This document shows positions 9,969-62,723 of a stretch of DNA of 64,000 nucleotides, piece by piece. Position numbers and translations under genes: made by a program. Source of the stretch: an uncultured Candidatus Saccharibacteria bacterium (GTDB lineage Bacteria; Patescibacteriota; CAZHWT01). The number at the start of each line of letters is the position of its first letter. Positions within the stretch are counted from its first letter, which is position 1. Under the pieces are notes generated by a model. That model ran no database searches. It had not been told where the DNA came from and saw only the letters and a list, made by a program, of their open reading frames with translations. Location of the stretch: contig CAZKPX010000001.1 in NCBI GenBank assembly GCA_964554805.1, positions 124,818 to 188,817 on the forward strand, read 5' to 3'.

Positions 9969-10026
9969 AATGTGATACCTTATACACTATTCTTGCCTGA
10001 AAGGCAAGCCTTAATCTTTGATTAAG

Positions 10027-32828: not shown

Positions 32829-34484
32829 ATGTCACAATCAGTGGGGCTAGGCAAGCCTGGCCAAAAACATGGGCTGCCTGAATCTAGCTTTACCCTCGGT
32901 CATACCGGATCTTCTGGGCAGATTTCTCCTGTTATTCAACAATTTATAGATTTACGCCAAACCTTGATTGGTCAGGCCGGATCCAAACAGCCGATGGTCG
33001 AGGTTAATGAGGCAGTAGGCATGTGGGCGTTTGCCTATGAGAAACTGCGCAATAGTGTTGAATATCGCGAAGAGACGGTATTGCTTCGAGCAGCTATTAA
33101 ACGTATTTTGAAACGACGACTGAGCCCTTTATGGAACTATGAATCTACTGCCAGCGCGCTGGTAAGAGAATTGATCTGGGCTCGATATTTGAAGAATGAT
33201 GCCGTGCCTCAGTCTAAAGTCGAAGAGATTGAGAAGTTGTTGGCCAAATATAGCGTATTGCGGCAAGCTATGGTGGGCAACAAAGAGGCGGAGGAATGGG
33301 AAGATTGGATATTGGGTATTGCGGCTTGTGATATTGAGCAGGTGTTGCTGAGTCGACAAGCTAGTTATGCCCTGGCAGAAGTGATGTTGCTGTGGTTGAA
33401 AGATAACATGGTGGTCAAGGGGATGCCGGCTGGAGATGTCGAGTTGCAATTGTATCTGGCGGTACACCGAACATTGCTCAAATCTGATCGCAGTCTATTA
33501 AACTATCATTTATTTTTGATAAATGTAGCTGGCTGGCATCAAGCTGACGAGAAAAAGGCTTTGGAGGTTGCTAAACAGCTGGCCTCAATACGCAAGAGAT
33601 TGGATGAGCAGCTTAACTACGAACATGGCCAGGCTTTGGCTAGAGCGGTTAAGAAGCAGACCCCACCTTTTATTGTACTGGATGATATAGTCAGCGCTAA
33701 TCTGGAGATGGCTACTGCGAATGTAGGAGATGCCGACACTCTTGATAAGAAGGTTGAAACGGTTTGCCAAAGCCGCTATCGGCAAATTGGCCAGCGTATC
33801 AGGACGGCTATTTTCCGAAGTATTATTTATATCTTTATTACCAAAGTTGGCTTGGCGCTATTGCTTGAAGTGCCGTTTGATAATTATTTTTATGGTGAGA
33901 TCCATTGGCCTCAACTGGCTTTTAATATTGCCTTTCCCCCACTGTTTATGGCTATTCTAGGTCTGAGCATCAAGACGCCGAGCGATAAAAATACAGAGGT
34001 CATAGGGCAAAAATTGCTGCGAATTGTGCAAGGGCTGCCTGATAAAGAGGTAATTAATCTGGATAATGGCTCATCACGGGCATCCGCTTGGTCGTGGATT
34101 TTCTTTGTAATATCTGCCGCGACATTTATTGGCGTATCGCTGCTGCTGTGGCAGTTCGACTTTACCATCATGGGCATTGGCTTATTCTTGTTCTTCTTCT
34201 GCGTGGTGGTGTTCTTTACCTATCGGGTGAGGCAGATTGCCCGCGAGATGAGCGTTATTCGGGAGAAGGAAAACTTTATAGAAAGTTGGATTACGATTAT
34301 TACTTTGCCATTTTTGGCACTTGGTTATCGATTATCAACCGAGTTCGGCAAGATCAATGTGACAACCTTTATTCTGGATGTATTGTTGGAAGCACCGTTT
34401 AAATTTATTCTGGATATGGCTGAAAGCTGGGTGAGTTTTGTTCGAACTAAACGGGATGAAGTGATTGATCGGCATGATTACTGA
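32829..34484 (+). CDS. Hypothetical protein (551 aa): soluble N-terminal domain of about 330 aa plus a C-terminal multi-TM domain
   Basis: Long ORF with no family recognised. It is followed by a GCGACGAG repeat and a hairpin. Confidence 0.5.
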   Translation: MSQSVGLGKPGQKHGLPESSFTLGHTGSSGQISPVIQQFIDLRQTLIGQAGSKQPMVEVNEAVGMWAFAYEKLRNSVEYREETVLLRAAIKRILKRRLSPLWNYESTASALVRELIWARYLKNDAVPQSKVEEIEKLLAKYSVLRQAMVGNKEAEEWEDWILGIAACDIEQVLLSRQASYALAEVMLLWLKDNMVVKGMPAGDVELQLYLAVHRTLLKSDRSLLNYHLFLINVAGWHQADEKKALEVAKQLASIRKRLDEQLNYEHGQALARAVKKQTPPFIVLDDIVSANLEMATANVGDADTLDKKVETVCQSRYRQIGQRIRTAIFRSIIYIFITKVGLALLLEVPFDNYFYGEIHWPQLAFNIAFPPLFMAILGLSIKTPSDKNTEVIGQKLLRIVQGLPDKEVINLDNGSSRASAWSWIFFVISAATFIGVSLLLWQFDFTIMGIGLFLFFFCVVVFFTYRVRQIAREMSVIREKENFIESWITIITLPFLALGYRLSTEFGKINVTTFILDVLLEAPFKFILDMAESWVSFVRTKRDEVIDRHDY

Positions 34485-34610: not shown

Positions 34611-34681
34611 AGCGGATGAGAGGATTCGAACCTCCAGCCTTCCCAGGAGTCGGGATGCTCTGCCTTTTGAGCTTCATCCGC
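34611..34681 (-). tRNA. tRNA-like gene with a non-canonical anticodon arm (4-bp stem, loop GACUCCU); isotype unassigned, possibly a pseudo-tRNA
   Basis: Perfect 7-bp acceptor stem (GCGGATG/CATCCGC). D arm GCTC-AAAAGGCA-GAGC. T arm GGAGG-TTCGAAT-CCTCT. The anticodon region is 2 nt short and lacks U33 and R37. Confidence 0.5.
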
Positions 34682-34697
34682 ACTTCCTCATGAAGGG

Positions 34698-34773
34698 CGC
34701 CCGCAGAGGGATTTGAACCCCCGATCTGCTCTTTACGAAAGAGCTGCTCTAGTCCAGGCTGAGCCACACGGGC
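34698..34773 (-). tRNA. tRNA-Thr (anticodon CGU)
   Basis: 76-nt cloverleaf. Acceptor GCCCGTG/TGCGGGC, anticodon stem GCTCT/AGAGC, loop TTCGTAA, T loop TTCAAAT. No encoded CCA. Confidence 0.8.
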
Positions 34774-34817
34774 GATATGCCGACTTGCTTTATGCTCTGG
34801 CGAAACCTGAGCAGTAG

Positions 34818-34891
34818 TGGGCGAGAAAGGATTCGAACCTCTGACCTCAGAACTGTCAGTCCTGCGCTCTTACCATCTGAGCTACACGCCC
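34818..34891 (-). tRNA. tRNA-Val (anticodon GAC)
   Basis: 74-nt cloverleaf. Acceptor GGGCGTG/CTCGCCC, D arm GCTC-AGATGGTAA-GAGC, anticodon loop CTGACAG, T loop TTCGAAT. Confidence 0.85.
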
Positions 34892-35211: not shown

Positions 35212-36774
35212 TTAGTCCGATTTGATTTCGACTTTGATTTGGATGGCTGAGTCTCGGCTAGGGAGATTGTCGAATGGTGCAGGGAGTTTGGGGCTGAGTT
35301 TGATGTCGTAACCGCTGAAGTTGGGTTGCCCCTTGAGATACTCTTCGACAATACTAGGATTTTTGCCTTTGACTTGGCTGATAAGGGAGGCCGTGTCGAT
35401 GTCAGGGATTATCTGGGCGCGGAAAGTTGAGGTTATTTGCATTACGCCATCATCCTCCACTTCGGTTACGGCGGTTTCAATAGCCGGCTCCTGATCAGTT
35501 AGTTTGTAGCCTTCAGGTACTTTGCCCTCAATAGTCTCACTGAGTAGTGAATTTAGATCTGTCTTGCTAACCACAGGAGAGGAGGCAGTCATAGTCAGAT
35601 TGAGAGTAAAGTTTTCTGCTTCTTCGTTAGTGGCTTTGCTGAAATCGGCGGTGGTAACTTTTATTTCAATAGCGTCATCGAGTAGAAGCTGGTCTGAGGT
35701 GATTTTGGCTTGGAGATCCTTGATGGCTTGCTTCTCTACTTCATCGGTTAATGACTGCAGTGCCTCTTGCCTGTCTTGGGAGGTGACTACGGTGACATTC
35801 TTTTTGGTTCCGCCAGTAAAAGCTGCATCATTACGGCCGGTCATGGAAGAGCTGCCAAAATTGCCGATGCTGAAGGTGCTCTTGGCGGCTACATTATATT
35901 CAGGACCAATTTGAGTAGCGGTCACTGCAGCATCGATCTTGCCGGGGGTGGTCTTGTTGATGGTTTCGAGAGTGTCGGGATCAATGGCTACTTCGGTCGT
36001 TGCGGCAGGTGCGGTAACTGAGCGGTTTAAGGCAAAGCTGACGTTGTCGGTTTTGACGATGGTGCCCTGTGGCAAAGTGCGGGGCTGCGTGGTTTGATTG
36101 AAAATAGTGATGGTGCCAGTGGCTTTTTCACCAACATCTTTTTTGCCAGTGGCGGCAAAGGATTTTTGCTGACTCGTTTCAACGGATACAACAGTTGCTG
36201 GCACCACCATATCTTGTTGATTGACAGAGGTGGCATCTGGGTTGGCGGTTAATTGAACATCACGATCAATGGTTCGCTCCTGAGTGTAAATGGTAATAGT
36301 GGCTTGTGGTAGGAAATAGAGGGCCATCATGATGCCGCCAATACCAACTGCCAGGAAGATAGCAACGAGGCTGACGGCTACCTTATGGCCGGCTAGCCAG
36401 GCCTTGATGGACTGTAGTTTGGAGGTGGGAGCTTGGGGGCTGGAGGTAGTGGGGGGCGCTACTTCTGCTGGTTCAGCGAGAGCGGCTGAGGGGTCGACGA
36501 TGGGGGCAGGGCTGTCAGTCTTGAGACCGGCTCGGGCGGCTAGGGCGGCTGTTTGGTGGCTGGCGGTGCTGATAGTAATAGATTTGCCAAGTTGAGCGGC
36601 GCGGTCGGCTAAAACTCGAAAGGCAATATCTCCTTGAGCAATACTGGCTCGGGCCGGCACGTCAATGGTAACTGAGGCAGCTGGCTCATCTATCAGCTTT
36701 TGAATAAGTTGACCCAGCTCTTCTTGAGGGCTGAGGTGAATAGTGGCAGAGGTGAGGGTGTTTGATTGATCCAT
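35212..36774 (-). CDS. Hypothetical bitopic membrane protein (520 aa): cytoplasmic N-terminal domain of about 135 aa, one TM, large Thr-rich extracytoplasmic domain
   Basis: ORF immediately downstream of the FtsA-like gene (13-nt gap). Confidence 0.5.
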   Translation of the reverse strand: MDQSNTLTSATIHLSPQEELGQLIQKLIDEPAASVTIDVPARASIAQGDIAFRVLADRAAQLGKSITISTASHQTAALAARAGLKTDSPAPIVDPSAALAEPAEVAPPTTSSPQAPTSKLQSIKAWLAGHKVAVSLVAIFLAVGIGGIMMALYFLPQATITIYTQERTIDRDVQLTANPDATSVNQQDMVVPATVVSVETSQQKSFAATGKKDVGEKATGTITIFNQTTQPRTLPQGTIVKTDNVSFALNRSVTAPAATTEVAIDPDTLETINKTTPGKIDAAVTATQIGPEYNVAAKSTFSIGNFGSSSMTGRNDAAFTGGTKKNVTVVTSQDRQEALQSLTDEVEKQAIKDLQAKITSDQLLLDDAIEIKVTTADFSKATNEEAENFTLNLTMTASSPVVSKTDLNSLLSETIEGKVPEGYKLTDQEPAIETAVTEVEDDGVMQITSTFRAQIIPDIDTASLISQVKGKNPSIVEEYLKGQPNFSGYDIKLSPKLPAPFDNLPSRDSAIQIKVEIKSD

Positions 36775-48255: not shown

Positions 48256-48807
48256 CTAATCAAAGCCAGGTCCATGCAAATCGATGCTTCGATTGCCGAG
48301 CAGGGTGTTGATACATGCGCTGCCAGCGCGTCGCACAACTGACTTAAGTCCAGACCAGCAGACTCTCATCCCTTGCATAATCAGGAGCCCGGTCAGGTGG
48401 AGACTGATGATGCAGACTGTGACAAAAGCCCCTTTTACAACTTCGACCAACAACTGCTGGAGTTGGTAGTAGTTGAGATGGCCCACTAAGGGCAGATAGG
48501 GCGAGGGCTGACTGACAGTGCTCGGCGCAGCTTTGTAGTCTAGCCAGCCGAGCCATCTGTACCCTAGATATAGCCAAGACGCGACTAAGCACCCGATGAA
48601 ACTTAGCCATAGTACAGCTACAACAATTCGTCCCAACAGGCTCAGCCGATAGACGAATGACCAGGAAATCATTTCAACGATCAAGGCTGCAGCTAAAATG
48701 ACCGCAACTGACCAAATGGTCAAGAGGTTGGCATCCGACACGAACCGGGTCAAGAATTGATCCAGACTGCCAGACAGGAGATTGATCGGAGTTCTTTCCG
48801 TTTCCAT
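48256..48807 (-). CDS. Hypothetical membrane protein (183 aa, about 4 TM)
   Basis: Hydrophobic ORF. A terminator hairpin (ACACCCCTG...CAGGGGTGT) follows at 48200-48240. Confidence 0.4.
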   Translation of the reverse strand: METERTPINLLSGSLDQFLTRFVSDANLLTIWSVAVILAAALIVEMISWSFVYRLSLLGRIVVAVLWLSFIGCLVASWLYLGYRWLGWLDYKAAPSTVSQPSPYLPLVGHLNYYQLQQLLVEVVKGAFVTVCIISLHLTGLLIMQGMRVCWSGLKSVVRRAGSACINTLLGNRSIDLHGPGFD

Positions 48808-49274: not shown

Positions 49275-49790
49275 CTACTGCTCATCTATTTCTGGCCGAT
49301 CTTCAAGAGCAAGGGGCTCATCCTCTAAAACACTTGGATCTTCATAGCTAGAAACGGTGAGATTGTGCTCGCCGGCCCACTTATGTTCCCCAAGTAATCC
49401 AACTTGAATAGTGCCACTACCATAAAACCTTACGCCAATAACCGTACCACTAGAAAGTCGATGAGAGAACTCACTATAGGATCCGCTTCTTTCCTTTTGA
49501 GCTTCGTTCCACTGATTGCAGAGTTGTGTGGCCTCTTGTGTATCACCACCTAATTGATCAATGGCGGCTACTAGTTGAGCAAACTCTGGGCTCAACTCTT
49601 GGAGTGTGTCTAAGTTACTCTGGGCGTTTTCTGCGAATTCTAGTCTGGCATGTTGGCCGTCGGGGCGCACCTTATTATTAGATGTTGCCTGCTGATAAAA
49701 ATCACCATCTTTGGTTGTGTCTGACTCCGGGCTTGGCATTTTGAAACCCTGTGGAGCTTCTGAACCTGGATTCTCAGCACTCATATACAT
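49275..49790 (-). CDS. Hypothetical protein (171 aa)
   Basis: ORF only. Confidence 0.4.
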   Translation of the reverse strand: MYMSAENPGSEAPQGFKMPSPESDTTKDGDFYQQATSNNKVRPDGQHARLEFAENAQSNLDTLQELSPEFAQLVAAIDQLGGDTQEATQLCNQWNEAQKERSGSYSEFSHRLSSGTVIGVRFYGSGTIQVGLLGEHKWAGEHNLTVSSYEDPSVLEDEPLALEDRPEIDEQ

Positions 49791-49903
49791 TCTCCTTGAT
49801 GATAAATAATTGTTTTAAGTATAGCAAATAAGATACTGGTTATCACCCAATAATACAAAAAGACGACTCAGTGAGTCGTCTTTTTGTTACCTATCGGCCG
49901 AAT

Positions 49904-52081
49904 TTATTCAGCCTGAGGTTGAGTGTCTGTTGGGGCGTCGGATGAGTCGACTGAATCAGGGGCGATGGCGGCTGATTTGGGGGCCTTGGTCGCTTCGGTG
50001 GCGGAGCGACGAGCGACAGGCGACGAGCGACGAGCGGGTGCTGGCTTGGCGGCTGCGCTGGCTGGGGCGGTGATTGGGCGGCGAGGAGTCGAGGTGCCGG
50101 TGCCGCGCATTTCGATGAGAACTGGCAGAACAATTGGGGTTCGGTCGGTTTCTTGCTTGAAGTACTTGCCGAGACGATCTTGAATGCGAGAGCGGATAGT
50201 TCCCCACTCTTGGTTCTTGGTTTGCGGATCGGTGATAACAGAGCGAGCAATAGAACGAGCTTCAGCCATTAACTTTTCGTTGAGACGAGCGTAAACAAAG
50301 CCGCGAGTTTGGACTTCGACTTCGCCAATCAGTTCTTTATCTTTGTTGAGTGTCGCACCGACGATGAAGACACCGGAATCGGCTAGCTGTTTGCGATCGG
50401 CAATGACAACTTCGCCAATGTCCCCTACTCCCAGACCATCGACCATGACGGAGGTATATGGGTGCTCTTCGCCCAGCTTGGCGTTGCCTTGGTTATCAAA
50501 GAGGACTTCCTGACCCGCGACAACCGTGAAAATGTGACCTTCAGGGTATCCCATTTTTTGGGCCATCTGCTTGTAGGCCTTGAGTTGACGCATCTGACCA
50601 GAGATAGGTACTAGGTATTTGGCTTTGACTAAAGCAATAGTTGTTTTGAGTTCTTCGGCGGCGGCATGTCCGGATACGTGAAGATTGTTCATAATATCGG
50701 AATAAGCGATGGTGGCGCCCAGGTCGGTCAGCTCGTCAATGATATCGTTGATGCCGCTTTCGCTACCAGGAATTGGATCGGCGGAGAAAATGACTTTGTC
50801 TTCCGTCTTAATGGTAAAGAGCTTGTGTTGACCTGATGTCAGTCGGGCTAAGGCCGAACCTTCTTGGCCATACGCACCAGTTAGAATGATTAATTGCTGA
50901 TCATCTGGGTAATCAGAGATAGCAGTATCGCGAACGACAACGCCGTCAGGGATTTGAGCATAGCCCAAACGTGTGGCGATGCCCATGACGTTATCAATGC
51001 TTCGACCAGCAAAGGCAACCTTGCGGTTGTAGCGCATGGCCACATTGATGGCTTGCTGCATACGGGTAACGTTGGAAGAGATGGTTGTTAGGAAGACGCG
51101 GCCTTTGGCGTTGCGCATTTCGGTATCCAGGCGATCTTCTACAACTGCTTCGGATGGGGTGTAGCCGGGTTTTTCGACACGTAGACAGTCGGACATGAGG
51201 GCCAGAACGCCTTCGCCACCGGCGCGAGCCAATTTGTCGACTTCGATAATAGTACCGTCAACGCTAGTCCAGTCATACTTGTAGTCACCGGTGTGGATAG
51301 TTGATCCAATTGGCGTCTTGATGACATAGCCAAAGGTGTCTGGGATGGAGTGGTTGACGCGGAATGGATTGAGGGTGAAATGACCGAAGGTGTATTCTTG
51401 GTCTGGCTCTATTTCGTGTAAGTCTAATTTGGCTCGGAACTCTGATAGTTTGCCTTTGATTAATTCAAGGGCAAAGCGAGGAGCGTAGATTGGAACATTC
51501 ATTTTGGGTGCTAAATAAGGGACAGCACCGATATGATCCTCGTGACCATGGGTGATAACGAGGGCCTTGATGCGATGTAGTTTATCCTTTAGATAGGTCA
51601 TATCTGGGATAACAATATCGATACCAAGCATGTCGCTAGAAGGGAAGCCCATGCCGCAGTCAACAACAATAATGTCGTTGCCATACTCGTAGACAAACAT
51701 GTTTTGGGTGACAAAACCATTACCTCCTAATGGTAAGACTTTTAGGACTGGGGCGCCTTCAGGATTGAAGGACCCTTGCTCGTTGAGAGACTGTTGTGCC
51801 ATACGAGCACGATTGATTGGCTGATGGCGATTGCGTCGGACTGGAGCGCCGCTGTTGGCGGGAGCGACAGGCGACGTGCGACGAGTAGGAGCAGCACCTG
51901 TACTACCTACGGCTTTGGGGGCTGCAGGTCGAGCAGTTGGGCTGGTAGCACCTGTTGGGGTGGTTGGAGTCGAAGCTGAAGTAGGAGCGCTTGGCTTTGA
52001 GCCGGCGCTGGCATTGATGCCATTGTTGGTCCGAGGACGGCCGCCTGATCTATTTGGGTTTGGTCGGAAATATTCTGACAT
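49904..52081 (-). CDS. rnj: Ribonuclease J (beta-CASP metallo-beta-lactamase) with low-complexity N- and C-terminal extensions
   Basis: VITHGHEDHIGAVPYL motif and a beta-CASP region. Ser/Pro/Ala/Arg-rich tails of about 130 aa (N) and about 90 aa (C) contain GCGACGAG repeats at 51860-51889 and 50001-50038. Confidence 0.85.
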   Translation of the reverse strand: MSEYFRPNPNRSGGRPRTNNGINASAGSKPSAPTSASTPTTPTGATSPTARPAAPKAVGSTGAAPTRRTSPVAPANSGAPVRRNRHQPINRARMAQQSLNEQGSFNPEGAPVLKVLPLGGNGFVTQNMFVYEYGNDIIVVDCGMGFPSSDMLGIDIVIPDMTYLKDKLHRIKALVITHGHEDHIGAVPYLAPKMNVPIYAPRFALELIKGKLSEFRAKLDLHEIEPDQEYTFGHFTLNPFRVNHSIPDTFGYVIKTPIGSTIHTGDYKYDWTSVDGTIIEVDKLARAGGEGVLALMSDCLRVEKPGYTPSEAVVEDRLDTEMRNAKGRVFLTTISSNVTRMQQAINVAMRYNRKVAFAGRSIDNVMGIATRLGYAQIPDGVVVRDTAISDYPDDQQLIILTGAYGQEGSALARLTSGQHKLFTIKTEDKVIFSADPIPGSESGINDIIDELTDLGATIAYSDIMNNLHVSGHAAAEELKTTIALVKAKYLVPISGQMRQLKAYKQMAQKMGYPEGHIFTVVAGQEVLFDNQGNAKLGEEHPYTSVMVDGLGVGDIGEVVIADRKQLADSGVFIVGATLNKDKELIGEVEVQTRGFVYARLNEKLMAEARSIARSVITDPQTKNQEWGTIRSRIQDRLGKYFKQETDRTPIVLPVLIEMRGTGTSTPRRPITAPASAAAKPAPARRSSPVARRSATEATKAPKSAAIAPDSVDSSDAPTDTQPQAE

Positions 52082-52313: not shown

Positions 52314-53435
52314 TTACCAGTTGGGCAAGAACTGCTTGATGTTCTGGGGCGTTATATAAAACTGCTGAGCCTGACCGCTGACCATTTGCAGAGCGATTTT
52401 TCGAACAAGGCCATTAATAATACGCTCCATAGTACGAATGCCTGCGTCAAAACCGAGCGGACGGACTAGCATGGGCCAGACCGCATCGTCCATAACGACG
52501 GAACCTTGAGGAATATTAGCAAATCCCAACTGCCGTGGAAAGAGGTACTCTCTGGCAATATGGATCTTTTCCTCATCAGTATAGCCCGGCATTTGAATGA
52601 CTTCGAGACGATCAAGAACTGCATTGGCAATGCCGTTGGTATTGTTGGCAGAAGCAATAAACAGCACCTCTGACAAATCGAAGGGATGATCGATATAGTT
52701 ATCGCTAAAGGCGTTATTTTGCTCGGGATCCAAGAGCTCGAGTAGCACACCCATGATTTCGGCTCGAGCACTTTCAGCTGTTCGGTCAATTTCATCGAGC
52801 AGAATGACGGGGTTTCTGACACCGACTCGACGCAGGGACTTTATAATTTGGCCCGGTTCGGCAGATGGAAGACTCCGACCCTGACCGCGCAATTGCTGAG
52901 CGGTGCCCATACCACCCATGGGGATACGAATGAAGGGACGGCCCAAGCTTTCAGCCACCGAGGCAGCAATAGAGGTTTTACCAATACCGGGCAGACCGAC
53001 AAAACATAGGATGGGTGATCGAGCGATGCCTGAGGCTTGACCACGAGATTGCATGATAAGGACGGATAAATGCTCCAAAATGCGCTGTTTGATCGGCAAT
53101 AAACCGTAGTGATGCTGATTTAGAACATCTTGAGCATACCGTAAGTCTAATATATCCTGATTCCTCTTGGACCATGGTAGGGCTGTTACCCATTCCACGT
53201 AGGCGTAGACCTCCTCATAGAGGTTGAGATACCCAGTAACGCCGGCTGAGCGATTGAGGCGGCCGACTGTGCCTTCGAGACGAGCTTGTAGCTCGGGCGG
53301 CAGGTCGGCTCCACTGATTGCCTGGAGCATGCTTTGCAATTCTTGAGTTAAAGGTGCGTCAACAGTAGGAACCGTACTGAGCTGCGGCTCAGTTGGTGCA
53401 GCGGTTGACCCTTGGGGCAGCTGGGCAGAATTCAT
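52314..53435 (-). CDS. Lon-like AAA+ ATPase lacking both the N-terminal LON domain and the C-terminal S16 protease domain
   Basis: YVEWVTALPWSK...LDLRYAQDVLNQHHYGLLPIKQRILEHLSV, Walker A GLPGIGKTS, ILLDEID Walker B, LELLDPEQNNAFSDNYIDHPFDLSEVLFIASANN, LDRLEVIQMPGYTDEEK. All are collinear with Lon. The protein ends at the AAA/protease boundary. Confidence 0.7.
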   Translation of the reverse strand: MNSAQLPQGSTAAPTEPQLSTVPTVDAPLTQELQSMLQAISGADLPPELQARLEGTVGRLNRSAGVTGYLNLYEEVYAYVEWVTALPWSKRNQDILDLRYAQDVLNQHHYGLLPIKQRILEHLSVLIMQSRGQASGIARSPILCFVGLPGIGKTSIAASVAESLGRPFIRIPMGGMGTAQQLRGQGRSLPSAEPGQIIKSLRRVGVRNPVILLDEIDRTAESARAEIMGVLLELLDPEQNNAFSDNYIDHPFDLSEVLFIASANNTNGIANAVLDRLEVIQMPGYTDEEKIHIAREYLFPRQLGFANIPQGSVVMDDAVWPMLVRPLGFDAGIRTMERIINGLVRKIALQMVSGQAQQFYITPQNIKQFLPNW

Positions 53436-53446
53436 ACAAGCTTAGT

Positions 53447-53491
53447 ATACATGATTTTGCTTAGCAAAATCATGTATACTAAGCGCGACTC
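53447..53491. promoter_or_regulatory. Perfect 21-bp inverted repeat GCTTAGTATACATGATTTTGC-TTA-GCAAAATCATGTATACTAAGC between pnp and the Lon-like gene
   Basis: Seen directly. It lies 12 nt upstream of the Lon-like start codon and about 70 nt downstream of the pnp stop. Confidence 0.5.
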
Positions 53492-53561
53492 GAATATAGA
53501 ATACGGAATATAGTTTGATGAATTTGACTACAACCGATATTCTATATTCACTATTCTCCGG

Positions 53562-55655
53562 CTAGGCTTGCTCCGGCTTCGGCAAGAGGGCTTTGCGGGA
53601 TAGATTGATTCGGCCTTGATCGTCAATCTTAACGACTTTGACGTTGACCATATCGCCTTCATTGACGACATCAGTCACGTTGTCGACTCGAGCATGCTCT
53701 AGTTCTGAGATATGAATCAGTCCGTCTTTGCCTGGAACTAGTTCGACAAAGGCACCGAAGTCCATAACTTTGACAACTTTACCAATATATTCTTCATCTA
53801 CCTTAATTTCCTTGGTGAGATTCTGGATCCATTCGATAGCTCGCTGCAAACCTTGAGGATTGTCGCTAGCAATAGTGACCGAGCCATCGTCTTCGATGTC
53901 GATTTGAGCGCCGGTTTCATCAATGATTTGGTTGATCATTTTGCCACCCGGTCCGATAACAATACCGATCAGTTTGGGATTGATCTTGATCATCTGAACG
54001 CGTGGTGCGTATTGTGACAATTCAGGGCGAACATCAGTGATGGTCTTCATCATTTCGTTGAGGATATGAGCTCGACCAACCTTGGCTTGAGCCAAAGCTT
54101 CTTGGAGAATCTTCTGGCTAATACCGGTTAATTTCATGTCTAGCTGGAGAGCGGTAATACCTTTGGAGGTACCGGCTACTTTGAAGTCCATATCGCCCAT
54201 GAAGTCTTCGAGACCTTGAATGTCGGACAGGATGGCATACTGATCACCGTCAGTGATAAGCCCCATGGCAATACCTGATACAGGAGCTGTGATTGGCACA
54301 CCGGCGTCCATGAGGGACATGGTTGAGCCACAGACAGAACCCATGGATGAGGAGCCATTGGAAGAGAGGGTTTCTGATACAACACGAATGGTGTAGGGGA
54401 ATGACTCTTCTGAAGGGATAACTGGCACTAAGGCGCGTTCAGCCAAGGCGCCGTGACCGATTTCGCGTCGGCTAACCGAACCAATGCGACGGACTTCGCC
54501 AACTGAGTAAGGAGGGAAGTTGTAGTGGTGGAGATACTTTTTGCTTGATTCGCCTTCCATGCCATCAATGATTTGGGCTAAGGAGGTTGAACCTAATGTG
54601 ACGACTGACAGGACCTGAGTTTGTCCGCGAGTAAAGAGAGCTGAGCCATGGGTTCGAGGCAACACACCAACCTGTGTCCAGATATCACGAACCTGATCGA
54701 GGCTGCGACCGTCTACGCGCTTCTTTTCGGTCAAGACGAGCTGGCGGACAACTTGCTTGACAGCCTTTTCGACAGCACCGGACATTTCCTTTTTAGTAGC
54801 GCGATCTTCAAACTTGGCCAGCACTTCGGCTTTGAACTCACCGACCGCATCTTCGCGAGAAGTTTTGTCTGGAGTCAGAAGACTGGTGGCTACATGTTCC
54901 TGAACATACTGATTAATTTCTTTTTCAAGTTCAGGGTCAATCTTGATGGCTTCAAAGGCATACTTTGTTTTACCTGCCTGAGACTTAAAGTCTTCGATGA
55001 GACTGACTATTTCAGAGATTTGTTCATGACCAGCCTGCATGGCGGTCAACATCTGTTCTTCAGTTACCTGATTGGCACCTGCTTCAACCATGGCAATGGC
55101 CTGATTGGTTCCGGATAAGGTCAAATCGAGATTGGTGGCTTGGCGATCAGCAGCTTGAGGATTGGTAACATAGTTGTCTTGACCTAACAGACCCATTCGA
55201 ACTGCACCGACAGGACCTGCCCATGGAATAGAAGAGATACTTAAAGCTGCTGAGGCTGCAATAACACTTAGGATATCTGGCTCGTTGTCGCCATCAATCG
55301 ACAGGACGGTAATGATTACCTGAACCTCGTTATAGAAGTCTTTGGGGAAGAGAGGGCGGATTGAACGATCGATGATACGAGCAGTTAAGGTGGCGTGATC
55401 GGTTGGACGGCCTTCGCGCTTGATGAAGCGTGAAGTGTGAATTCGTCCACCAGCGTATAGACGCTCAGCATATTCAACTGTTAAAGGGAAGAAATCCATG
55501 TCTTCTCTGGCTGTGGCGCTACAGACACTGGCTAGAACCATGGTGTCACCATACCGAGCTACTACAGCTCCATCGGCTTGTTCAGCCATGCGGCCAGTCT
55601 CTAATGACAGGGTTCGACCGGCAATTTGACGTTCGACTTTTATTGTTTTATTCAT
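53562..55655 (-). CDS. pnp: Polyribonucleotide nucleotidyltransferase (PNPase); start at the internal MNKTIKVE
   Basis: Two RNase PH-like domains, KH domain (IGPGGKMINQI), and S1 domain (GKVVKVMDFGAFVEL). Confidence 0.9.
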   Translation of the reverse strand: MNKTIKVERQIAGRTLSLETGRMAEQADGAVVARYGDTMVLASVCSATAREDMDFFPLTVEYAERLYAGGRIHTSRFIKREGRPTDHATLTARIIDRSIRPLFPKDFYNEVQVIITVLSIDGDNEPDILSVIAASAALSISSIPWAGPVGAVRMGLLGQDNYVTNPQAADRQATNLDLTLSGTNQAIAMVEAGANQVTEEQMLTAMQAGHEQISEIVSLIEDFKSQAGKTKYAFEAIKIDPELEKEINQYVQEHVATSLLTPDKTSREDAVGEFKAEVLAKFEDRATKKEMSGAVEKAVKQVVRQLVLTEKKRVDGRSLDQVRDIWTQVGVLPRTHGSALFTRGQTQVLSVVTLGSTSLAQIIDGMEGESSKKYLHHYNFPPYSVGEVRRIGSVSRREIGHGALAERALVPVIPSEESFPYTIRVVSETLSSNGSSSMGSVCGSTMSLMDAGVPITAPVSGIAMGLITDGDQYAILSDIQGLEDFMGDMDFKVAGTSKGITALQLDMKLTGISQKILQEALAQAKVGRAHILNEMMKTITDVRPELSQYAPRVQMIKINPKLIGIVIGPGGKMINQIIDETGAQIDIEDDGSVTIASDNPQGLQRAIEWIQNLTKEIKVDEEYIGKVVKVMDFGAFVELVPGKDGLIHISELEHARVDNVTDVVNEGDMVNVKVVKIDDQGRINLSRKALLPKPEQA

Positions 55656-55671
55656 ACTTGGTTGTGGGGCA

Positions 55672-55763
55672 GAAATCAAAGGGCAAAAGGCAAAGGGCAA
55701 AAATGTGTCAAGTTATATTTTTGACTTTCATTTTTGACTTTTGCTTTTTGACTTTTGACTTTC
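55672..55763. repeat. AAAGGGCAAAAGGCAAAGGGCAAAAA / TTTTTGACTTTTGCTTTTTGACTTTTGACTTT inverted-repeat element in the pnp 5' leader
   Basis: Arms at 55672-55705 and 55716-55763. Same unit family as 44465-44640. Confidence 0.4.
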
Positions 55764-61880: not shown

Positions 61881-62723
61881 TTAAAATTTGATGGCGCTGA
61901 AGATAGTTTGGCCAATTGTGGAGTCTTGGGGCTGACCGTCGATCTGCTTGAGCTGAATGACATAGTTGCGCTGATTGGCCGCAACTACATAAACATCTTC
62001 GGTTATATAGCTATCTGTGTCTGAATTATAGGAGGTTTGAGTCAGACTGATGGCTTGCTGATTGCCCAGTTTGAAAGAGTGCTGATTGGTGATTTTGTTA
62101 GGCTGTGGGTTGAATGTAGCTCCATCGCGCCATACTCCAACTGGAGCCTCCTGCCAGGATTTAGTATATATCTGAGCGAGTTGGTCTAGACTCAATGAAT
62201 CAACTAGAGGGCTGCTACAAATGACTCGAATAGAGGTGCCTTGACTACTATCGGATAGCTTGTAGCTAACTGAGGCAGTAGCGACTAGACCGAGACCCTT
62301 ATATTCAATGCCGGGCGTAAAAATATTAGACTTCCCCTCATAACTCCACCCCCCTTCTCTTTGATTGATAACAGGAGGAATAGCCAGGCTGACTTGACAG
62401 GAATTAGTGTCTGGTCCTTGATAGGTCCAGCCTTGAGGCAAGGCTGCTGTCTGCGAGGCAGATGTGGTTGTTTGCTGAGAGTTGGGTGTGGGGGTTGGTG
62501 CTGAAGGTATTACTTTGGGTTGTGAATTAATTTGATAAAACGCGGCTACCGCAACAGCTCCGGCGACAGCGAGTGTGATAATGGCAATTAGACTGATGAT
62601 AGGCCATTTGCTGGTGGACTTGGTTGATGGCTTTGGTGATATTTGAGTCTGCGATTGTGCTGATTGAAGCGGCACGATGGATGCTTGGCTTTGGTCGTCG
62701 AGCGAAGATTGAGGATCGTCCAT
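61881..62723 (-). CDS. Hypothetical membrane-anchored/secreted protein (280 aa; N-terminal TM, Ser/Thr/Gln-rich linker)
   Basis: ORF with IISLIAIITLAVAGAVAVAAF TM. Flanked by about 90-bp direct repeats. Confidence 0.5.
   Translation of the reverse strand: MDDPQSSLDDQSQASIVPLQSAQSQTQISPKPSTKSTSKWPIISLIAIITLAVAGAVAVAAFYQINSQPKVIPSAPTPTPNSQQTTTSASQTAALPQGWTYQGPDTNSCQVSLAIPPVINQREGGWSYEGKSNIFTPGIEYKGLGLVATASVSYKLSDSSQGTSIRVICSSPLVDSLSLDQLAQIYTKSWQEAPVGVWRDGATFNPQPNKITNQHSFKLGNQQAISLTQTSYNSDTDSYITEDVYVVAANQRNYVIQLKQIDGQPQDSTIGQTIFSAIKF

Follow-up and report, generated by a model that had tools for sequence, protein, structure and literature searches.

What does a Lon-type ATPase do when it is encoded without a protease? 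The question is raised by a coding sequence at positions 52314..53435 of the minus strand of the window, which here means the whole 64-kb stretch of DNA that was analysed. The CDS begins with ATG and encodes 373 amino acids followed by a stop codon. All features located below are likewise on the minus strand. An earlier note on this DNA had described the product as a stand-alone Lon-derived AAA+ ATPase with neither a protease nor a LON N-domain, and had quoted a series of motifs from it. The ORF exists exactly as described, and the motifs (LPWSK, HHYGLLPIKQRILEHL, GLPGIGKTS, VILLDEID, LDPEQNNAFSDNYIDHPFDLSEVLFIASANN, and LDRLEVIQMPGYT) are all found in the translation.

The description of the protein was correct, as judged by Pfam, TIGR00763, and PDB matches. 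Pfam identifies an AAA domain (E = 1e-18) and a Lon_lid match that is sub-threshold (23.7 bits; gathering score 27). No Pfam match to Lon_C or to the Lon N-domain was obtained in the 373-aa protein. TIGR00763 (lon) aligns over profile positions 260-571 of 795 only, with a score of 319.6 bits that is below the curated equivalog cutoff of 608.05, and NF008053 scores 248.5 bits against a cutoff of 891. Among solved structures, Lon proteases give the top matches (3m6a, for instance, at E = 2.6e-73 over query residues 30-370), and identity to E. coli Lon is 37% across 338 residues. The AF2 model has a pLDDT of 89.6, and its Foldseek TM is 0.82/0.90 against the E. coli Lon AAA+ fragment 6n2i and 0.72-0.82 against LonA structures. 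The protein is predicted to fold as a Lon ATPase module, and the Pfam, PDB sequence, and fold matches all identify a Lon-type AAA+ module with a Lon lid.

The protein had also been said to be collinear with Lon and to stop where the S16 protease domain would begin, and the alignment agrees on both points. It spans E. coli Lon residues ~250-584, which comprise the three-helix bundle, the AAA+ large domain, and the Lon lid. The C-terminal residue is the equivalent of E. coli Lon F584, within the AAA-to-protease linker. Residues 1-29 (53349..53435) are a low-complexity tail, MNSAQLPQGSTAAPTEPQLSTVPTVDAPL, which is predicted to be disordered (pLDDT 49-65) and is missing or variable in most relatives. 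Longer Q/P/S/T-rich N-terminal tails occur in variants P0139, P0140, P0143, and P0149. A Lon N-domain was considered for these longer variants and rejected, as the extensions are low-complexity tails only. Residues 30-90 (53166..53348) are helical. When aligned with the Lon proteins of E. coli and B. subtilis, they match the homologous stretch Lon 250-305, the NTD three-helix bundle that precedes the AAA domain. The model places helices at residues 31-42, 47-62, and 69-85, and the family conserves Y79 (Lon Y294) and W82 (Lon W297).

The Walker A motif, GLPGIGKTS (52971..52997), contains G147, G150, G152, K153, and T154, which are invariant in 120 of 120 family members. The Walker B motif, VILLDEID (52785..52808), contains D214 and E215. 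The sensor-1 asparagine is N264 (52644..52646), the arginine finger is R276 (52608..52610; Lon R484), and the sensor-2 arginine is R334 (52434-52436), located in the lid. K153, T154, D214, E215, N264, R276, and R334 are invariant in both sets of family members (120/120 and 70/70). The pre-sensor-1 beta-hairpin region, QNNAFSDNYIDHPFDLS (52671..52721), is the hallmark insert of the HCLR clade and was placed by alignment and model; short beta strands lie in this region of the AF2 model, ahead of the sensor-1 strand. The role of this hairpin in Lon is treated in PMC7239648. Family-wide, Y247 (Lon Y456) is Y or F, and D249 (Lon E458) is D. The sequence features that mark an HCLR-clade AAA+ protein are present, namely Walker A and B, sensor-1, arginine finger, sensor-2, and pre-sensor-1 hairpin.

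The Lon-type lid, or alpha subdomain, is formed by residues 285-373 (52317..52583). It contains a family-specific loop, R-P-L-G-[FY]-D-A-G-I-R, whose P326, L327, and G328 are invariant and take the place of Y-Y-T in canonical Lon. The C-terminus, [FY]-L-P-x-[WY], is also conserved, and its terminal W/Y is aligned to Lon F584. Because the trans-acting arginine finger R276 is conserved, assembly into a ring is implied, and the protein would probably form a hexameric ring with ATP hydrolysis.

The earlier note had raised recent truncation, decay, or assembly error as explanations. The gene would then be a non-functional remnant (a lon gene truncated recently, a pseudogene, or an artefact of assembly), and the unusual architecture itself is the one point in favor of this. 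The architecture is, however, widely kept. The best 120 database matches are all 298-405 aa in length and all without Lon_C, and 120 database clusters share the architecture at identities down to 38%. The gene ends 0-8 codons past the ATPase in 66 loci. A scan of GTDB species gave 80 loci, with the stop codon 0-8 codons after the AAA end in 59; the other 21 are canonical Lons, all with N and P domains. An independent assembly carries an identical sequence for the ATPase. The dN/dS value is 0.05 versus the closest relative, the catalytic residues are invariant, and the AF2 model is confident. Because of these conservation data the remnant explanation is refuted, and we give it practically no credence.

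The short family is separated from canonical Lon in 100 of 100 NJ bootstraps, and the named records among its members are Patescibacteria lineages. A full-text literature search returned no description of a protease-less Lon family, nor of Lon in CPR/Patescibacteria. As judged from sequence comparison, the ATPase gene is a member of a conserved, undescribed, monophyletic family in the ultra-small Patescibacteria (CPR) and is not a broken gene. An ATPase of a defence system was also considered. PADLOC, which covers anti-phage ATPases such as BrxL or IetA, gave matches to the protein at the P-loop level only (E values of at least 7.6e-6, ~55 residues), and this candidate was rejected.

The missing domains were sought in the surrounding DNA. 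Profile HMMs for S16 and LonN gave zero matches at E<=1 in the 64-kb window and in the loci of 63 relatives (1.04 Mb, with ~10 kb searched around the ATPase gene in each). The same profiles detect 19 of 19 canonical Lon loci used as positive controls. Searches by tblastn with the E. coli Lon domains found no protease or N-domain remnant anywhere in the 64-kb window. The claim that no protease remnant lies in the gap before rnj was borne out by both methods for this 232-bp spacer. A detached Lon domain was also looked for upstream of the gene in relatives. The 344-aa ORF in locus L002 has no Pfam match, and a 615-aa ORF in locus L009 was rejected because it encodes a DUF2207 membrane protein.

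The pore loops are where the family departs from canonical Lon. The pore-loop 1 region, RGQGRSLPSAEPG (52851..52889), was aligned to canonical Lon, where the pattern is R-R-T-Y-[VI]-G-[AS]-[ML]-P-G. In the family the pattern is [S]-R-x-x-P-[DE]-A-E-P-G. Canonical Lons (n = 90) have T397 in 90, Y398 in 89, V/I399 in 87, and G400 in 86. Family members (n = 70) have at position 398 F (14), H (11), S (10), Y (9), or others, followed by P399 in 40, E/D400 in 59, and E402 in 68. R395 of canonical Lon is replaced by S, and the window protein carries L189-P190 at the Y398-I/V399 pair. Y398 and I399 of Lon grip the substrate (PMC7239648). The pore-loop 2 region, RTAESARAEIMG (52749..52784), has lost the canonical [FYW]432-R-G434-D-P436 signature. 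Position 432 in canonical Lon (n = 90) is F (41), Y (21), or W (5), with G434 in 89 and P436 in 88. In the family (n = 70), position 432 is A in 41, position 434 is variable, and position 436 is I in 57. The alignment shows that neither of the two pore loops with which canonical Lon grips and threads polypeptides has been kept; a different sequence stands in their place, which is conserved and acidic and contains proline. No other feature of the protein is as informative as the loss of the pore-loop tyrosine, on which the earlier note is silent. This loss is no proof of lost translocation, since about one third of the GTDB sample retains F or Y at position 398.

These results bear on the split Lon that had been proposed, with the protease half encoded elsewhere. 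The ATPase ring would dock on a separate peptidase, either an orphan S16 or another self-compartmentalised protease, and deliver unfolded substrates to it, as ClpX does to ClpP and HslU to HslV. The ATPase ends precisely at the AAA-to-protease linker with its conserved C-terminus, and the invariant P-L-G-[FY]-D loop before sensor-2 superficially resembles the docking tripeptides of Clp ATPases, IGF/LGF. Both elements nevertheless align with structural positions of canonical Lon, the terminal aromatic with F584 and the L-G-F loop with the structured Y-T-R loop, and they may be inherited structural positions. Clustering of the neighbors of 66 loci gave no recurrent peptidase gene, no S16 domain was found in the window or within ~10 kb in the 63 relatives' loci, and both threading loops are replaced. 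We also know of no naturally split LonA. The proposal of a split Lon finds no support in the window or in the relatives' loci, and a two-component protease of any kind is considered quite improbable.

The gene had been described as sandwiched between pnp and rnj, and Pfam annotation of the flanks is in agreement. The upstream neighbor (53562..55700) is pnp, encoding polynucleotide phosphorylase (RNase_PH twice, PNPase, KH, and S1). Its translation probably starts at the ATG at 55655, and the gene call is 697 aa. The downstream neighbor (49904..52081) is rnj, encoding RNase J, with Lactamase_B, RNase_J_b_CASP, RMMBL, and RNase_J_C over residues 122-657 of 725 and low-complexity extensions at both the N- and C-terminus. 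The spacers are 126 bp to pnp and 232 bp to rnj.

The spacer between pnp and the ATPase gene contains a TATACT box (53444..53449), a candidate -10 element 8 nt upstream of the ATG. In the window and in loci L092, L005, and L006, TATACTAA precedes the start codon by 6-8 nt, and TGn stands before the box in L092 and L005. This candidate promoter would give a leaderless or near-leaderless mRNA for the ATPase gene. The same spacer has two strong hairpins (53440..53549; RNA fold of -54 kcal/mol, z = -8.6). The first is a perfect 22+22 palindrome at 53440-53484 that overlaps the TATACT box, and the second is imperfect, with 23-bp arms, at 53492-53549. The hairpins are identical in the independent assembly and unique within the window. 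They are not a family feature because they are absent in the nearest relatives. No known RNA element was found in the spacers; the Rfam gathering search gave only three tRNAs located elsewhere. Heat-shock regulation by CIRCE was rejected, as a search allowing up to 3-4 mismatches found no operator close to a family gene or at any place in the window.

The order pnp..gene..rnj, with both genes within 6 kb, is present in 31 of the 49 loci that have both flanks, including named Ames-, Shapiro-, Levy-, Davies-, Woese-, and Gottesmanbacteria, WWE3, and one Saccharibacteria locus. Directly adjacent genes are pnp upstream in 27 of 55 loci and rnj downstream in 24 of 56. The site lies in a ~20-kb syntenic housekeeping block, nusA-infB-nrnA-like-rpsO-pnp-X-rnj-ftsK-rodZ-alaS. 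Neither pnp nor rnj is nearby in ~11 loci. In about five species (L021, L025, L026, L049, and L057), which are five of these loci, groES-groEL is found instead, divergent from the ATPase gene. Among the variable inserted neighbors (UDG, Nudix, metallophosphoesterase, DUF2207, PfkB, and others) no consistent partner was found.

The protein could accordingly be a dedicated RNA-metabolism factor that works with PNPase and/or RNase J and is co-expressed with these nucleases, either as a degradosome-like assembly factor, a nuclease regulator, or a remodeller of ribonucleoproteins or basic RNA-binding proteins. Conservation of the pnp/rnj position is consistent with this, as are the ATPase and rnj ORFs of several species, which overlap or nearly abut (gap of -7 to +7 nt), and the Nudix gene present between the ATPase gene and rnj in WWE3 and Saccharibacteria. 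An acidic pore would suit basic clients, although it argues against direct threading of RNA. Against this explanation, synteny extends over the entire block from nusA to alaS, and the adjacency may be inherited gene order. Bacillus subtilis also has the order pnp...rnjB...ftsK, with no such ATPase gene known there. In locus L007 rnj is not adjacent, the ~11 loci noted above lack both nucleases nearby, and in the window the gene is set apart by its two spacers and its own promoter-like box. Because the whole housekeeping block is syntenic, the pnp/rnj adjacency may say nothing about function. The dedicated RNA-metabolism factor is regarded as possible but unlikely. Of the earlier idea of an unfoldase or chaperone repurposed for RNA metabolism, the conserved position in most relatives stands in its favor, while the long housekeeping block and the groES-groEL setting of another subgroup do not.

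The reading we prefer, with somewhat more than even confidence, is that of an active remodeller of Lon ancestry that forms rings and carries out no proteolysis. Its LonA ancestor would have lost the substrate-recognition domain at the N-terminus as well as the S16 protease at the C-terminus. A Lon-like hexameric ring would assemble and hydrolyse ATP, with no proteolytic chamber fed by it. The ring would remodel or chaperone its client without degrading it, and contact would be made either in the rebuilt pore, with its negative charge, or at the top face. Genomic context suggests that the client may be a component of RNA turnover or translation (pnp and rnj) or of general proteostasis (groES-groEL). 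A bolder form of this proposal is speculative, and we think it rather unlikely. Much of Patescibacteria/CPR would have turned Lon into a purely mechanical, non-degradative AAA+ machine with an acidic, proline-containing pore. Its clients might be basic (ribosomal or RNA-binding proteins) or might be PNPase or RNase J, and these organisms may have no Lon-type proteolysis at all.

Lon is regarded as a fused ATPase-protease, and to our knowledge the natural Lon variants (LonB, LonC, LonBA, and Lon-like-Ms) retain the protease domain. In the present family the Lon motor alone is retained, across a bacterial radiation that is large, deep, and marked by minimal genomes. This motor is under strong purifying selection, with the catalytic site intact and the substrate-gripping loops rewritten. 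If the ring is active, the family is a natural experiment on a Lon motor without proteolysis and on an AAA+ pore without aromatic paddles. If the conversion of Lon outlined above is true, it would be a new functional class, a Lon-derived motor with non-aromatic substrate engagement. In JGI, NCBI, and UniRef, many family genes carry the name 'ATP-dependent Lon protease' or 'Lon protease'. Metabolic and proteostasis reconstructions that rely on such labels would wrongly attribute Lon proteolysis to Patescibacteria.

The closest known system is LonA (endopeptidase La; MEROPS S16; TIGR00763), represented by E. coli, Y. pestis, and B. subtilis Lon and human LONP1. Homology extends over the three-helix bundle, the lid, and the AAA+ large domain, including the pre-sensor-1 hairpin, and every ATPase catalytic residue is common to both. 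The family differs from LonA in lacking the N-terminal substrate-binding domain, the long coiled coil, and the S16 Ser-Lys protease domain. It also differs in the replacement of pore-loop 1 T-Y-[VI]-G and pore-loop 2 [FY]-R-G-D-P, in the changes R395 to S and Y535-T536 to L-G, in forming its own clade, and in scoring under the TIGR00763 cutoff. The recombinant E. coli Lon AAA+ fragment (PDB 6N2I) has near-identical boundaries, with the query on chain residues 9-335 of 344 at a target-normalised TM of 0.90. That fragment is an engineered piece of a full-length protease, whereas the protein described here is a natural, conserved product with altered pore loops.

ClpX and HslU, of the HCLR clade, are likewise stand-alone AAA+ proteins without a protease in the same chain. 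Unlike the family, they keep aromatic pore loops and defined docking elements and usually have adjacent peptidase genes; no partner peptidase gene was found for the family among the neighbors of 66 loci or with S16 profiles in the window and 63 loci, and no docking element could be identified with certainty. An active-site mutant of yeast Pim1 reportedly promotes complex assembly, a chaperone-like, proteolysis-independent activity of Lon. This is a precedent for useful work by a Lon ATPase without proteolysis, although in Pim1 it is a secondary activity of a full-length protease, and here the protease is wholly absent. Other natural departures from the LonA plan (PMC9569914 and PMC4864567) are LonC or Lon-like proteases without ATPase activity, LonB, and Lon-like-Ms. 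These retain the protease and alter or lose the ATPase or the N-domain, and the Patescibacteria family is the opposite case.

The AAA gene occupies positions 52314–53435 on the minus strand, begins with ATG, and encodes 373 amino acids, exactly as the earlier note placed it. Pfam reports an AAA domain (E = 1e-18) and a Lon-specific lid match of 23.7 bits, under the gathering score of 27, but neither the Lon protease domain (Lon_C, S16) nor the Lon N-domain. The NCBIfam Lon equivalog TIGR00763 aligns over profile positions 260–571 of 795 only, and its score of 319.6 bits is far under the cutoff of 608. The solved structures closest to the protein are all Lon proteases, including B. subtilis Lon 3m6a (E = 2.6e-73, query residues 30–370); the engineered E. 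coli “Lon AAA+ domain” 6n2i matches with E = 1.5e-72. An AlphaFold2 model made from a family alignment of 61 sequences is confident (mean pLDDT 89.6, pTM 0.83), with disorder limited to the first ~30 residues. Foldseek places this model on Lon and LONP1 ATPase modules (TM 0.82/0.90 to 6n2i). Profile matches, related structures, and predicted fold agree: the protein corresponds to E. coli Lon ~250–584, with the three-helix bundle that precedes the ATPase, then the large AAA+ domain, and finally the lid. In the alignment, its last residue is the equivalent of Lon F584, in the linker toward the protease. Its description as a stand-alone Lon-derived ATPase that lacks the N-domain and stops at the S16 boundary therefore holds.

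Genes for PNPase (pnp, upstream) and RNase J (rnj, downstream) flank the AAA gene, as had been noted; both lie on its strand, with spacers of 126 bp and 232 bp, respectively. The gap before rnj was said to hold no protease remnant, and the same is true of the whole 64-kb window, where tblastn with the E. coli Lon domains found no Lon-domain remnant and profile HMMs found none of the protease or N-domain.

Searching 5.8 billion proteins gave 7,968 matches. The best 120 of these share 52–100% identity and are 298–405 amino acids long; all carry AAA and Lon_lid and none carries Lon_C. Those with a named source come from Shapiro-, Davies-, and Amesbacteria, Microgenomates, and “Patescibacteria group”. 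A locus scan that took one genome for each GTDB species gave 80 loci. In 59 of them (38–56% identity) the ORF ends 0–8 codons past the ATPase module, and the ±10 kb around the gene is free of Lon N and P domains in these 59; one further family locus (L064) is cut by a contig end. The named family loci include Ames-, Shapiro-, Levy-, Roizman-, Davies-, Woese-, and Gottesmanbacteria, WWE3, and Dojkabacteria, with one Saccharibacteria and one Nomurabacteria record. The other 20 loci are canonical Lons from other phyla, with both domains in one ORF unless the contig ends, and served as positive controls for domain detection. Profile HMMs for the Lon protease and N-domain had zero matches at E ≤ 1 across the window and 1.04 Mb of family loci; on the canonical loci they detected 19 of 19 at E ≤ 1e-30 for each domain. 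The family gene thus has no protease in cis or nearby, in the window or the family loci.

Neighbor-joining sets the family apart from 90 canonical Lons in 100 of 100 bootstraps, and mean identity is 52% inside the family and 38% between family and canonical Lon. Strong purifying selection is evident from a dN/dS of 0.05 against the closest relative (87% amino-acid identity), and an identical gene is present in an independent assembly of a sequencing run. Recent truncation or decay, which the earlier note had raised, is refuted by the shared short architecture of the best 120 matches and 59 loci, the dN/dS, and the bootstrap split. Assembly error, also raised there, falls to the independent assembly and the same architecture across relatives. 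That the gene is a dead remnant has next to no probability.

Many of the family MAGs (L012–L063) are titled “uncultured Gammaproteobacteria” or “uncultured Pseudomonadales”, and one “Candidatus Methanoperedens sp.” These titles are probably wrong, since the loci share the nusA...pnp-AAA-rnj-ftsK gene order with named Patescibacteria.

The catalytic site is intact. Walker A (G-x-x-G-x-G-K-T), Walker B D214-E215, sensor-1 N264, arginine finger R276, and sensor-2 R334 are invariant in 120 of 120 aligned family members. Also kept is the scaffold by which the pre-sensor-1 hairpin is coupled to the three-helix bundle: Y79, W82, Y/F247, and D249, the equivalents of Lon Y294, W297, Y456, and E458 (roles in PMC7239648). 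The pore loops, compared between 70 family members and 90 canonical Lons (Lon numbering), have been replaced. In the substrate-bound Lon structure, the translocating chain is held in a pincer-like grasp by the intercalating Y398 and I399 (PMC7239648). Canonical pore-loop 1 has H394 (87/90), R395 (89/90), T397 (90/90), Y398 (89/90), V/I399 (87/90), G400 (86/90), and M/L402 (83/90), whereas the family has Q/x394, S395 (59/70), a variable 397, P399 (40/70), E/D400 (59/70), and E402 (68/70). Position 398 is variable in the 70 family members (F14, H11, S10, Y9, R5, L4, and others). Where E. coli Lon has R-T-Y-I-G-S-M-P-G, the sequence of the window protein is R-S-L-P-S-A-E-P-G. In pore-loop 2, canonical Lon has F/Y/W at 432, G434 (89/90), and P436 (88/90), whereas the family has A at 432, a variable 434, and I at 436, so that the aromatic and G-D-P are gone. 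Other fixed family differences include P357L in the P-loop, K427R, and L-G-x-D in place of Lon Y535-T536-x-E538 in the loop before sensor-2. At the level of sequence, the pattern is that of neofunctionalization, with an intact motor and inter-subunit communication and a substrate-contacting surface first rewritten and afterwards conserved.

Because the trans-acting arginine finger is invariant, the protein would be expected to form a ring, most simply a Lon-like hexamer, and hydrolyze ATP. With no proteolytic chamber below the ring and the tyrosine/aliphatic pincer missing, its work would most likely be non-degradative and mechanical, such as remodeling or holding a client, or assembling or disassembling it. 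Client contact would go through the acidic, proline-stiffened pore or the three-helix-bundle face. A Lon-derived, ring-forming, non-degradative mechanical ATPase is the most likely reading of sequence and model, held with moderate confidence. A split Lon, in which this ATPase docks on a peptidase encoded elsewhere, is rather improbable, given the rewritten pore and the lack of an S16 match in the window and the family loci.

Neighbors were clustered for 66 family loci, with counts taken only over loci with enough flank. Of 55 loci, 27 have pnp immediately upstream and 38 have it no more than 6 kb away; of 56, rnj is the immediate downstream neighbor in 24 and lies no more than 6 kb away in 43. 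Both are present in 31 of 49. At seven loci (L051, L041, L052, L029, L015, L060, and L073), the AAA ORF overlaps the rnj ORF or is 1–7 nucleotides away from it, which fits co-transcription with rnj. The order nusA-infB-DHH phosphoesterase-rpsO-pnp-[AAA]-rnj-ftsK-rodZ-like-alaS, however, is syntenic as one stretch. A dedicated partner of PNPase and RNase J, as this arrangement might suggest, is a minor possibility; it overlaps with the preferred mechanical ATPase, whose clients these enzymes could be. The pnp/rnj placement noted earlier extends to many relatives, but a separate subgroup, not near pnp/rnj, has groES-groEL divergent from the AAA gene instead (L021, L025, L026, which is from Roizmanbacteria, L049, and L057; partly L031), and at L007 no rnj lies beside the gene. 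No CIRCE operator was found near the groES-groEL-divergent AAA genes. Context hints at RNA turnover/translation on one side and at chaperones on the other, and decides for neither.

A TTGTCAAG motif recurs in the spacer shared with groES-groEL, which is 58–156 bp long. Two of these loci, L021 and L025, also have a convergent RNaseH-like gene (PF04308) that overlaps the 3’ end of the AAA gene. The genes at times inserted beside the AAA gene are mixed (UDG, Nudix, metallophosphoesterase, DUF2207, EamA/Gmk, and a PfkB/rpe/rpiB set). The AAA-rnj slot is a hotspot of small insertions (e.g., L002 11056–11694, L055 11073–11621, and L017 1955–2452), with a UDG-family glycosylase in 20 loci, a metallophosphoesterase in two, and a Nudix hydrolase in WWE3 and Saccharibacteria.

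A TATACTAA box lies 6–8 nucleotides upstream of the ATG in four related genomes, the window (53444–53449, minus strand) and its nearest relatives (including L092 ~470–480 and L005 ~9985–9995), and is preceded by TGn in two of the four. It looks like an extended −10 promoter, which would yield a leaderless or near-leaderless mRNA. A perfect 22+22-nucleotide palindrome (53440–53484, minus strand) overlaps the box and ends 5 nucleotides before the start codon; a second, imperfect hairpin with 23-bp arms lies at 53492–53549 (minus strand). The RNA of this pnp-AAA spacer (53440–53549) folds with −54 kcal/mol (z = −8.6). Both hairpins are very stable, are the same in the independent assembly, occur once in the window, and have no counterpart in the nearest relatives. 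Candidate explanations are a promoter-overlapping operator, a site where pnp transcripts terminate or are processed, and a recently inserted element. A perfect hairpin with 16-bp arms (49855–49887), just downstream of the rnj stop codon, is probably the transcription terminator closing the unit.

The RNase J encoded by rnj (49904–52081, minus strand) is 725 amino acids long, with Pfam domains at residues 122–657 and low-complexity, P/A/S/T/R-rich extensions of ~100 (N-terminal) and ~65 (C-terminal) residues; in relatives its length is 548–712. Five ORFs of 171–551 amino acids have no Pfam family: 32829–34484 (plus), 35212–36774, 61881–62723, 48256–48807, and 49275–49790 (all minus). Nearly everything else in the window is coded on the minus strand; the 551-residue ORF is one of its few long ORFs on the plus strand. 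A three-tRNA cluster (34611–34891, minus strand) is the sole Rfam match.

No curated family in Pfam or NCBIfam covers the protein, and no published description of the family was found in the full-text literature, of which the coverage searched was incomplete. The family is clear and well supported, with a mechanistically provocative change, and is apparently undescribed. Several of the best 120 matches are annotated “Lon protease” or “ATP-dependent Lon protease”. This name should not be used for the window protein, since it lacks four of five defining LonA features (N-domain, S16 domain, a score above the curated cutoff, and pore-loop tyrosine). By sequence it qualifies as an HCLR-clade AAA+ ATPase; it descends from the LonA ATPase module and would work like it. 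Three database proteins outside the window (P0121, P0123, and P0126; top-scoring 50%-cluster representatives of 1,075–1,379 amino acids) are unusual multi-AAA Lons, in which two or three Lon-type AAA modules in tandem precede a single Lon_C. Known natural Lon variants (LonB, LonC, LonBA, and Lon-like-Ms) retain the protease and vary in other parts. The family described here is the reverse, with the ATPase kept and the protease gone, and what resembles it most is the artificial E. coli fragment 6n2i.
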